Positions 48,001-51,000 of a stretch of DNA of 64,000 nt are shown here, piece by piece; position 1 is the first letter of the stretch; each line of letters opens with the position of its first letter. Source of the stretch: Coxiellales bacterium (lineage in GTDB: Bacteria > Pseudomonadota > Gammaproteobacteria > CBDETP01); NCBI GenBank assembly GCA_965242995.1, contig CBDETP010000003.1, forward strand, positions 18,792 through 82,791, in the 5' to 3' direction. Made by a program: the position numbers.

Positions 48001-51000
48001 AATTGGCATAGCCTTTGGTTTTGTTTGTGCTGCAGTTTATCTGTCTTATGATTTTTTTGTTAATAAGCTGTCTTGTATAAATAAATAAGACCACTAATTT
48101 GCATGCTTAATGGGTGTGAAATGTTGTGTTTGAAGTTCCAGTAATTGCCGCTAAAATCCCAATAATTGCGATTACAATAACGAATAGTTGAGCGTTGATT
48201 TTTAGCCATTTCAAACGAAAAACCACTCAGCGACAGACTTTTGATTGTTTTTCATGCTTAAAACCTTTGCCACAAAAAAAACTTTATTGTTACAAATTAA
48301 TCCGTTGAGGTTGTTTTTACTTTATTTTGACCTCTTGATATTTTCTTAATATTCATGGCGTATAATCTTCCTCATAGTTAGGAGTGTCACTCATTCGTTG
48401 TTGATGGTGGATGCTTCTAAAAATGCTGAAACATAAAACAAATACTACTATTTGGGAGATAGAAAATGCGAAAAGATACAAGAGAATGGTTAAGAAAAGG
48501 TGCTTTAAAAGATGTCGCAGATGATGGCAACAATCTTCAATATCTCCCTGAGGAATTCCGAGCTGATCGTGAGGCGGTCTTAGCTGCGGTGGCGTAAAAT
48601 GGTGAGGCGCTTAAATATGCCTCTGCCGAATTGCAAGGTAATGATGAGTTACAAAGAGTTGCCAGAAGAGAGCCTGGCTCTGCAGCAGAAGCAAAACCTG
48701 CTAAGAGTCTAAAAACGGCAGGCAATGCTTGATAACTGGCATTTTTCGAAGCAGCAGCATGTGCAAGACCTACCCAGGGGATAAAAAAAGCAACTTCAGC
48801 TCCAACCCTAACTCCGTAGCTAATAATTAACTTGGTAAAACAATAAATCTCCTCCTGTCTCCAGCATTTTTATGATGCTGGAGGTAAGATTAACTCTTAT
48901 TGATGGCGCTATCTTAGAAGTTTTCCAATATTTTTTTATGCTCCGGATTTAAATTTTCTTTATGTTCCTTTATTCTCTTTACACGCTCTGTCTCTTTTTC
49001 AGATTTAAAATATTTTGAGTTATAGTTATGAACAGCATTTATTCCTGGAAGGTAGTAGGGATGATTAGAGTATGATCATCTGCGCCACTCCTCTTTTATT
49101 CCAAGCGCCTTAACCCATTCATCATATCCACCAAGCAATAGGTAATAGAATCTTCCTTGCAAATATCATCCGCAGGGGGAAGAATATATCTGGCACAACT
49201 ATTAATGTTTCCCCGTATCATTGCTTTATGGATAACAGGTTCTTCCTTCCAAATATCATCCATAGGGTCAGCAAAACCAATTTTTGCCAGTGAAATTCTA
49301 TCCCCTATTTTCACTCCGTCACAATACAGCTGACACATTCCTAGAAAAATTCCATTCGTTTATTTCAGCTTATTGCCAATTCTGGTTTTGTCATGCGACC
49401 ATAGGATTAGTGTTGCCTTGCCTTGTATGTTTTTAATAGGAACCAGGGAAAACTGCTGATTTACAGAAGAAGAGTTAGGTGCGGCATTCATTTTCACTAA
49501 AACCATATTTGCTGGTATATGTATTGGCAAAGGATTTCTTTTAACAAAAGTCGAATCTTTTTGTAAGTATCTAGTTAGTTTAAAATTTAGTTGATTATTT
49601 AAGTATATATTATTGTTTTTTATTTGAAATTTACTTGATCCTAAAGCAAATATTTTTCTTATGTATATCTTAGTTCGAGGCTTCTCGTTTAGTTTGTAGA
49701 ATAAGATGTAAGAACCAATTTTTAATTTAGGGGTATGAAAAATAAAAATAGGGCGGCTTCGATATAGTATAGTAGTCATATGGAAACCAACAGGAAGTCC
49801 ATAATTCATTTTTGCTAAGAGTACATTTCCTCTTTTGAGAGTTGGGTCACTCGAACTTGCAAGAATTCTATAGTGCCGATATCCCGATGATAAAGCCGAG
49901 AAGTTTGCTAGAACATGTGAAAATATTGCATAAAGAATGTATAGATACCATTTGCTATAGTTCTTGAAATATATGCCATTTTTGTTACTGTTTAAACGGT
50001 ATGCATCAGCAATCATATAAATGAGTGTAAGTATAAGAGTCAGATATATGATGGCAGCTCCATAAAAAGAATTCATTAAACCTGAGAATCCTGTTATTGC
50101 CAATAAAATTATAATGCCAAATAAAAAAAACAGACCCCGCCGCATCTGTCCAGCAAATACATGTCCTAAACCAGGGCAAGTTATAGATAATAGAGCAATA
50201 ACGCCAGAGGACAAACGGCCTCGAATTTTAGTTAGGTTTTCCATGTGTATTTCCTCATTCTGATTTCATTTACTCGAACTATAGTGGGGGGTGGCTGGGT
50301 AAAGCAAGTATTACCGAGCACTCATCACAGAAGACTGCGAGGCTCTGTTGCCTTGGAATGCAAAGAAAAGAAATAGGAGAGTTACAAGTTTATAATTATA
50401 GTTGTTAATAATAAGCGTAGTAGAACAATAATAAAACCCCTGCCCCAGTATTCTAGAATACTGGGGGTAAGTTTTTTTAGTTAATTTTCTCTATATGGTT
50501 TCAATTGAAAATAAAATTCTTAATTACACTATTCATTATTAAAATTCAACGACAGTTTTTTCAGAAAAATCAGGCTATGTTAAGAGGCAAAAGTTGGAGC
50601 GCTTTTTGCCGGACTTTTGTCTGCGCCGGTGTAAATCACTTGTTTTTTGAGGAAGTAAATAACCAGCCGATTGAAAAATATTTTTTATTTAGATTTGTTT
50701 TTTATCATTATCATATGGTTGGGTTTTTTTTAAAGGAACGTCAGGGTGCAAAAAAGCTTAGGATGATGGCAAAAAATAGTTATTTATGTGGCGGATTTTG
50801 TTTATTTTTAAATGGAGAAGAATCTTTTAAAAAACGTTTATTTTCAATATTTTGTGTAAATTCTCAGGCAAACGATAGTACTATTTACTATACTTTCTTT
50901 GAGTAAAAAAAAGGAGGTATGCCATGATCACTTTTTCAGTCTTGACGACAGTTGCTTTTGTGTTGTTGTGGTTTTCATTGGTGGGTCGTTTGTTTTTCAA

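Follow-up and report, generated by a model that had tools for sequence, protein, structure and literature searches.

The gene, its product and the altered catalytic site

On the reverse strand of a stretch of 64,000 nucleotides (nt) of contig CBDETP010000003.1 (assembly GCA_965242995.1, from a Coxiellales bacterium)—which whole stretch we refer to as the window, and in whose numbering the coordinates are given—lies a gene for a protein of 294 amino acids (aa) that resembles the signal peptidases of type I (SPase I) in peptidase family S26. An earlier reading of the sequence, hereafter the original prediction, had described this gene as a divergent S26 paralog of LepB or TraF type with an extended polytopic N-terminal domain and a retained Ser/Lys dyad, followed by a small open reading frame (ORF) of 80 aa as the first candidate for its substrate. 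Both ORFs are present in the ORF list where that prediction had placed them, in the same orientation and 21 nt apart. The features of the locus are the following:

49360-50244, (-): 294-aa S26A (LepB-type) signal-peptidase-like gene, from the ORF list, the TAA stop at 49360-49362 being included
49885-50244, (-): N-terminal membrane module, residues 1-120, from AlphaFold2 secondary structure, hydropathy, loop charges and motifs
49363-49884, (-): SPase I-like beta domain, residues 121-294, from profile and fold alignment to SpsB, LepB and SipA
49852-49854, (-): codon of S131, in the nucleophile Ser column (Escherichia coli S90, SpsB S36), from the alignments, coordinates checked
49654-49659, (-): codons of R196-K197, in the columns of Lys145 and Arg146 of E. 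coli (Ec), from the MAFFT and hidden Markov model (HMM) alignments, coordinates checked
49456-49491, (-): degenerate box E, M252-Q263, MNAAPNSSSVNQ, from the alignments
50250-50256, (-): Shine-Dalgarno-like GAGGAAA, 5 nt 5' of the ATG of the 294-aa ORF, from direct reading of the sequence
50443-50466, no strand assigned: hairpin formed by a perfect palindrome of 10 bp, T-runs being present on both strands, approximately 200 bp upstream of the S26-like gene
49096-49338, (-): 80-aa orphan ORF, from the ORF list

The Pfam model PF10502 (Peptidase_S26) matched residues 104-282 of the 294-aa protein at E=8.8e-9, scoring 36 bits where the cut-off is 22.9, and the model of bacterial signal peptidase I, TIGR02227, gave 46 bits against a cut-off of 47, which score is borderline and formally below the threshold. 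An HMM constructed from 74 canonical members of the family described below aligned with residues 13-293, co-linearly and over the full length, at 195 bits. A sequence search of the PDB with the single protein produced no match, so that the family profile was needed: the profile of the query together with its relatives matched Staphylococcus aureus SpsB (E=7e-32) as well as E. coli LepB (E of about 1e-28). The AlphaFold2 model, computed upon an alignment with 25 relatives, had a mean predicted local distance difference test (pLDDT) value of 90.1 and a predicted template modelling (pTM) score of 0.85; and when that model was compared with the PDB through Foldseek, the top 24 matches were all SPase I or the SipA of Streptococcus pyogenes, with a probability of 1.00 for the entries 4wvh, 1b12 and 1kn9. 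Pfam, the family HMM, the AlphaFold2 model and Foldseek all agree, and the similarity to S26 greatly exceeds what chance would give. The description as a divergent paralog of S26 whose N-terminal extension is polytopic stands, and the protein is a real homologue of the S26A peptidases whose profile matches and model indicate the SPase I beta-fold. Automated pipelines would label the gene simply "signal peptidase I."

The N-terminal module comprises, in the AlphaFold2 model, a first helix at residues 10-22 and 26-30—kinked at P24-G25-L26-G27 and surrounding the PGLGH motif—followed by helices at residues 34-54, 60-85 and 99-119, with the beta domain beginning at residue 122; residues 5-6 are paired with residues 91-92 in the same model. 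Only two segments of the module passed a strict hydropathy threshold, and its positively charged loops lie at residues 32-36 (RR) and 80-97 (R, K, K). We infer from these elements a topology in which the N-terminus is cytoplasmic, the first pair of helices is re-entrant, the chain crosses the membrane three times, and the SPase-like domain is periplasmic. The polytopic domain of the original prediction was accordingly found as a four-helix module, its length being of some 120 aa and not of the approximately 140 then estimated. The conserved motifs of the module are PGxGQ/H and W99-Y100-x-Y102. In the query the module matched DUF6677 weakly and below the threshold (E=8e-4), while some relatives match DUF5683; a literature search on DUF6677 and DUF5683, or on Gram-negative SPase paralogs devoid of activity, brought up nothing of relevance.

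The catalytic columns were read from three independent alignments—a MAFFT alignment of 25 sequences, a second MAFFT alignment of 151 sequences anchored on SpsB, and the HMM of the 74 fully canonical members—with the nucleophile column being fixed by the PDB pair 4wvh/4wvg, which entries differ only in the replacement of Ser by Ala in "GESMDPTL." The nucleophile Ser column (E. coli S90) is occupied by S131 within A-S-S-S-D-P-T-L, so that this residue is kept. On all three alignments, however, the Lys145(Ec) column contains Arg196 and the Arg146(Ec) column Lys197; in the HMM alignment at box D the canonical "efvKRiva" is thus set against "IYIRKIFA" in the query. The family box E, GDNRxxSxDSR (Ec 272-282), corresponds in the query to M252-Q263, in which segment a Met stands in the invariant Gly272(Ec) column, the Asp280/Arg282 pair is gone, and the sole residue retained is S258, the equivalent of Ser278(Ec). 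The confidence of the model is lowest precisely here (pLDDT 66, residues 251-260). The C-terminal strand that comes after box E, "IQGKxxLILWS..RIG," is still conserved.

In SPase I the general base is Lys145, which residue is stabilised by Ser278, and Gly272 is invariant, any side chain at that position clashing with Lys145 (PMC4049620). The Arg in the Lys column, the replacement of Gly by Met, and the scrambling of box E argue that signal-peptide cleavage, and with it the peptidase activity of the 294-aa protein, has most probably been lost. Of the dyad that had been read as retained, then, the Ser is in place and the Lys is not, which is the very loss upon proper alignment that the original prediction had named beforehand as telling against it; what had been taken for the catalytic Lys of box D is a displaced K197 (or K192) outside the general-base column, and the "LILWS" segment considered to be box-E-like belongs to the C-terminal strand downstream of box E. 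In addition, a segment following box B ("KMNYG...GFH...") was considered as a novel insertion, which idea we dropped because E. coli LepB, as we take it, has an equivalent "EKFAYG..." hairpin.

Within the 64-kb window no other S26 gene and no canonical lepB were found. The lepB gene is essential, and since the 294-aa protein is devoid of the general base, it would not be the housekeeping LepB.

A widespread family with a degenerate clade

When 1.84 billion cluster representatives were scanned exhaustively with HMMER (E<=1e-3), 1,124 of them proved to combine the membrane module with the S26 domain; many have 260-310 aa and align from end to end, and the best one (P0003, against the query P0001) has 38% identity and also exactly 294 aa. 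A word-indexed homology search with the 294-aa protein recovered only the protein itself, and a near-clade profile search yielded few relatives. The family extends over the Gammaproteobacteria, Desulfobacterota, Bacteroidota, Ignavibacteria, Bdellovibrionota, Fibrobacterota and other taxa, with Legionella moravica, Halomonas, Marinobacter and Xanthomonadales-type metagenome-assembled genomes (MAGs) among its gammaproteobacterial members, and its distribution is patchy and without synteny. A literature search on an architecture with a PGxGQ membrane module plus S26 found none; the family is widespread, unnamed, unstudied, and automatically annotated as "signal peptidase I."

We took a census of the catalytic residues in the 143 full-length representatives among the best 150 matches, which matches were ranked by their similarity to a degenerate query, so that the following fractions may be somewhat inflated. 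The Ser, the Lys and the box E were together present in 76 of the 143, while the remaining 67 were non-canonical in at least one of the three, often with all else intact: 33 lacked the Ser (mostly replaced by Ala, Gly or Thr), 45 lacked the Lys, and 13 lacked both. Many members conserve the Lys and box E and carry Ala, Gly or Thr at the nucleophile position within an otherwise intact x-M-x-P-T-L (as in PSLAMEPTI and PSGTMEPSL); in others the Ser is kept and the Lys column contains Ser, His, Arg, Phe or Glu. Two further observations concern the architecture of single members. An uncultured alphaproteobacterial MAG harbors tandem family paralogs (L018, 4901-5854 and 5899-6870), both with the canonical Ser, Lys and box E; and in a gammaproteobacterial MAG from heated drinking water the copy P0010 / L002 continues beyond the RIG-type motif (...FSKIGS...) with about 100 aa of additional C-terminal sequence.

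The relatives nearest to the query share its manner of degeneration, as the following copies illustrate:

P0003: Ser column Val; Lys-Arg columns Arg-Arg; box E scrambled
P0009: Ser column Ser; Lys-Arg columns Gly-Lys; box E deleted
P0010 / L002: Ser column His; Lys-Arg columns Arg-Lys; box E deleted
P0011: Ser column Ser; Lys-Arg columns Arg-Lys; box E deleted
P0021: Ser column Lys; Lys-Arg columns Gly-Lys; box E deleted
P0025: Ser column Thr; Lys-Arg columns Gly-Lys; box E mostly deleted
L. moravica (L001): Ser column Ile; Lys-Arg columns Gly-Lys; box E mostly deleted

In the Ser column, the 11 degenerate relatives have in turn S, V, S, H, S, R, K, T, K, I and H, a variability which indicates that the nucleophile is not under selection in that group. 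In a neighbour-joining tree nine degenerate copies, including the query, formed a single clade with a bootstrap of 59/100, nested within a near-group of 20 (79/100) whose remaining members are mostly canonical. The ORF is intact in seven of the nine, with lengths of approximately 240-366 aa, despite identities of at most 45% in either domain. The canonical pairs, moreover, have a higher mean identity in the peptidase domain (0.36) than in the membrane module (0.27), whereas in the degenerate pairs the order is reversed (0.30 in the peptidase domain, 0.32 in the module).

The 80-aa ORF and the surrounding genes

The 80-aa ORF shares the reading frame of the S26-like ORF, with one TAA and seven sense codons between the two. 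The normal C-terminus of the family (RIGxxLK) coincides, however, with the stop of the 294-aa ORF, so that the common frame is probably a coincidence and not, to judge from the alignments, the mark of a split gene. For the same reason, and in view of the absence of similarity to the C-terminal extension of P0010, we ruled out that the 80-aa ORF were a former C-terminal extension, which possibility its frame and that extension had raised. The ORF has no hydrophobic or signal segment (maximum 19-residue Kyte-Doolittle value of 0.52), and there is therefore no signal peptide or transmembrane (TM) helix on which a signal peptidase could act. No convincing ribosome-binding site was found for it; it constitutes a singleton cluster among some 15 billion proteins, without matches in Pfam, the PDB or plasmids; and no counterpart was found beside any of the relatives. 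From its sequence, then, the 80-aa ORF is not a plausible substrate, contrary to what had been proposed; it may not be a gene at all, and is probably unrelated to the system.

Upstream of the S26-like gene, between it and the adjacent AT-rich stretch, stands the hairpin at 50443-50466, CCCCAGTATT-CTAG-AATACTGGGG, with flanking T-runs on both strands. This structure looks like a bidirectional terminator, and as such would shield the S26-like gene from read-through coming from the side of the ZIP transporter. The gene is in fact flanked by those for a MATE transporter (46736-48088) and a ZIP transporter (51488-52234). Its GC content is 0.33, compared to 0.404 in the window and 0.357 in the inter-gene stretch from 48.1 to 51.5 kb, and the GC content at third codon positions (GC3), of 0.275, falls inside the range of the neighbours (0.25-0.43), so that the qualification of the gene as extremely AT-rich was overstated.

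The inter-gene stretch also contains a small glycine-zipper lipoprotein gene along with unassignable AT-rich DNA. An ORF with a DUF4116 repeat (Pfam, E=4.7e-12) lies at 48466-48725 (+), with approximately 370 bp between it and the end of the 80-aa ORF; it is interrupted by an in-frame TAA (48595-48597) and probably represents a gene fragment or a pseudogene. On the other side, within 50505-51109 (+), there is a 133-aa ORF whose GC content is 0.29 and for which not even a threshold of E<=10 brought a family match; a hydrophobic ORF of 61 aa (50924-51109) follows it, and the DNA here is probably for the most part non-coding or decayed.

The genes over the 31-64 kb of the window are all ordinary chromosomal or housekeeping ones: riboflavin synthesis, suhB, a cysteine desulfurase-type aminotransferase, dut, phosphomannomutase, xthA, rpsF-rpsR-DUF2232-rplI-dnaB-alr, major facilitator superfamily (MFS) transporters, and exbBD, among others. 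The order rpsF-rpsR-DUF2232-like-rplI-dnaB-alr, at 52496-56987 (+), is shared with distant gammaproteobacterial relatives. In the nearest rpsF loci, which are too distant for a close comparison, rnr-rlmB lies directly upstream and the S26-like gene is absent, while here that position is occupied by the ZIP transporter gene and the low-GC stretch; this difference weakly supports the accessory islet in which the original prediction had located the gene. The ribosomal protein S6 encoded here has a best identity of about 78% among 5.8 billion clustered proteins, with the named relatives scattered across the Gammaproteobacteria, which ceiling indicates that the source is a poorly sampled gammaproteobacterial lineage. 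A Legionella species proper, which the L. moravica relative, the DUF4116 fragment and a GC content of ~40% had at first suggested as the source, was rejected on these two grounds. Of the Rfam families, only the t44 small RNA (sRNA; RF00127) reached its gathering score within the window, with 45.9 bits where 44 are required; it lies at 13908-13998 (+) and thus spans the start given in the ORF list for 13964-15034.

Function of the 294-aa protein and likeness to known systems

Our favoured explanation, held tentatively and with somewhat less than even confidence, is that the 294-aa protein is a non-catalytic, membrane-anchored and periplasm-facing SPase-like protein that would bind and not cleave. 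The membrane module of some 120 aa, characterized by the PGxGQ motif, takes the place of the usual anchor and would fix the protein in the inner membrane with the SPase-like beta domain turned to the periplasm, where this domain might serve as a non-cleaving peptide- or protein-binding module, by analogy with what has been shown for the SipA of S. pyogenes. The catalytic decay in the query and its nearest clade—Lys to Arg, Gly to Met, and the scrambling of the rest of box E—would go back to an old loss of the Lys and of box E in a gammaproteobacterial (Legionella-associated) lineage, after which most descendants would have kept the ORF and some would have lost it. To such an old loss followed by retention point both the intact ORFs in seven of the nine clade members at no more than 45% identity and the common length of 294 aa in P0001 and P0003 at 38% identity. 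The query itself, with an intact ORF behind a good Shine-Dalgarno sequence and a confidently predicted fold, is in keeping with that retention. The reversed order of domain conservation in the degenerate pairs also speaks for this explanation, and a catalytically dead SPase homologue endowed with a function has its precedent in SipA (PMC4049620).

Several observations weigh against this explanation. S131 and S258 have been kept and Lys197 stands next to the general-base column, which might allow a non-canonical active site. At 90% identity the 294-aa protein clusters with no other; the degenerate clade has a modest bootstrap, and its degenerate sequences could have been drawn together artificially by long-branch attraction. 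The DNA from the hairpin to the start codon of the S26-like gene yielded no sigma-70-like promoter, and the 22 loci encoding relatives contain no recurring neighbour gene family, so that no binding partner is suggested. Furthermore, two of the relatives are damaged. The copy of L. moravica DSM 19234 (L001, NZ_AUHS01000008.1), located between lon-hupB-ppiD and fabI-udk, has an in-frame stop at approximately 6052-6054 within the PGIGQ motif (LALLSLA*IPGIGQIFGG), and is by its sequence a pseudogene of an already degenerate copy. P0004 (L022 1820-2338, GCA_021773295.1), whose N-terminus is the most similar to that of the query (54% identity over 145 aa), has 172 aa and is truncated after box B; on its contig of 3.5 kb it adjoins a RelE toxin / helix-turn-helix (HTH) antitoxin pair.

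These two copies, together with the patchy distribution without synteny, the singleton status of the protein, and the absence of an obvious promoter, would be likewise consistent with a functionless relic, namely a once-active accessory paralog drifting toward a pseudogene, whose ORF is open by chance or because constraint was lost recently. The lower-GC surroundings, with their stop-broken DUF4116 fragment and unassignable DNA, as well as the relatively faster evolution of the peptidase domain in the degenerate members, point in the same direction. We nevertheless regard a relic as rather unlikely, if by no means negligible: the ORF is intact and preceded by a strong Shine-Dalgarno sequence, the N-terminal motifs and the C-terminal strand remain conserved, the fold is predicted at a pLDDT of 90, and neutral decay would not permit that seven of the nine clade members be intact after so deep a divergence. 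The residues that survive in the site suggest a further alternative, that of an active, specialised signal or leader peptidase working through a non-canonical site—S131 with either Lys197 or Arg196—upon one or a few dedicated exported substrates, in the manner of the dedicated maturase that the original prediction had envisaged. S131 is indeed at the nucleophile column and S258 at that of Ser278(Ec), the model gives the SPase fold with high confidence, and the displaced Lys, which recurs as "x-K" in P0009, P0010, P0011, P0021, P0025, L001 and L002, may be conserved. Arg, however, serves poorly as a general base at physiological pH, and since adjacent side chains of a beta-strand face opposite sides, Lys197 in the modelled strand 194-200 should miss the pocket. 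The relatives that share the displaced Lys have, moreover, a variable residue in the Ser column (H, K, T, I, H), the Asp/Arg pair of box E is gone, and no candidate substrate lies nearby, the 80-aa ORF having no signal peptide. The Met at the Gly272 column, besides, should fill the Lys pocket (PMC4049620). An active peptidase of this kind seems to us, on these grounds, improbable.

The remaining alternative, in which the protein would be a TraF-type (S26C) pilin-processing or cyclising peptidase, or the relic of one, from a conjugative or type IV system with the 80-aa ORF as its substrate, has in its favour that this S26 paralog is encoded away from a lepA-lepB-rnc context, within a lower-GC stretch. 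The canonical family members do match TraF models, but as secondary matches that any S26 protein gives, their best value for TraF being 3e-14, compared with 3e-44 for SPase I. The query itself matches SPase I models only, with no match to the TraF models TIGR02771, PRK13884 and PRK13838 even at E<=10; and no match was obtained by tblastn of the 294-aa protein against 72,556 plasmids. Neither within the 31-64 kb nor in any of the 22 loci of the relatives were tra, trb or vir genes present, and over the same 31-64 kb sortase and pilin genes were equally absent near the S26-like gene. A polytopic protein of 294 aa is also at variance with the short, single-anchor architecture of TraF, the catalytic Lys is missing, and the supposed substrate is an orphan that has neither a signal nor a hydrophobic segment and does not appear beside relatives. 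The TraF-type alternative, which is already largely refuted, thus appears scarcely credible, and the profile matches place the protein with the LepB-type (S26A) and not the TraF-type peptidases.

Returning to the non-catalytic, membrane-anchored protein that we favour, we consider as possible, although on balance doubtful, a wider proposition: that the family with PGxGQ module plus S26 domain is a large, cross-phylum one in which catalytic death is common, and that its Legionella-associated clade has long been kept as Gram-negative membrane pseudo-peptidases with a non-proteolytic role. Such a role could be, for instance, the binding of signal-peptide-like segments or the modulation of the housekeeping peptidase, by an analogy with SipA that implies no common origin. 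If the degenerate clade is truly retained, the "dead" SPase homologues with non-enzymatic roles—a notion that so far rests on SipA in Gram-positive pilus assembly—would extend to the Gram-negative bacteria, and a large unstudied family with frequent loss of catalytic residues would be flagged; if the gene is only a relic, it would exemplify ordinary genome decay. The S26-like gene, in any count of SPase genes, should not be taken for a second functional LepB, as in considerations of arylomycin-type target redundancy.

With regard to the known systems, the query conforms to the family described above in its full-length 195-bit match, in a size near 260-310 aa, and in the N-terminal and C-terminal motifs, but belongs to a degenerate clade without the Lys and box E, whereas about half of the representatives examined (76/143) are canonical. 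With TraF (S26C; TIGR02771, PRK13884, PRK13838) it has in common the S26 superfamily fold, the Ser/Lys ancestry, and the status of accessory paralog in Gram-negative bacteria, and differs in the model matches, the tra/trb context, the plasmid homologues, the size and the membrane architecture. The likeness to E. coli LepB and S. aureus SpsB (S26A) is closer, for it includes the fold, the order of the boxes B-E, the Ser-x-x-P-T-L of box B, the Gram-negative-type "xxNYG" hairpin following that box, the C-terminal "W-S...R-I-G," and the best profiles, which are those of SPase I. The query departs from both, however, in the general-base Lys changed to Arg, the destroyed box E and the Met at the invariant Gly, and from LepB also in having a four-helix module of some 120 aa with PGxGQ instead of two TM helices, in a location outside the lepA-lepB-rnc context, and in a TIGR02227 score of 46 against 47.

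The SipA/LepA of S. pyogenes (PDB 4n31, 4k8w) provides a parallel to the proposed role, being an inactive SPase I homologue that keeps the peptide-binding cleft and has an essential non-enzymatic role in pilus polymerisation (PMC4049620). The two proteins share the SPase I fold, with a template modelling score of 0.67-0.69 normalised to SipA, and a broken catalytic apparatus in which the Gly272 column is substituted in both, by Asn in SipA and by Met in the query. SipA, in contrast, has lost both Ser and Lys—Asp and Gly being there instead—while the query keeps the Ser; and SipA has a single TM anchor and belongs to a Gram-positive sortase-pilus island, whereas the query is polytopic, gammaproteobacterial, and outside any pilus or sortase context. 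The identity between the two is only 12-14%, from which figure it follows that the inactivation would have come about independently in each.

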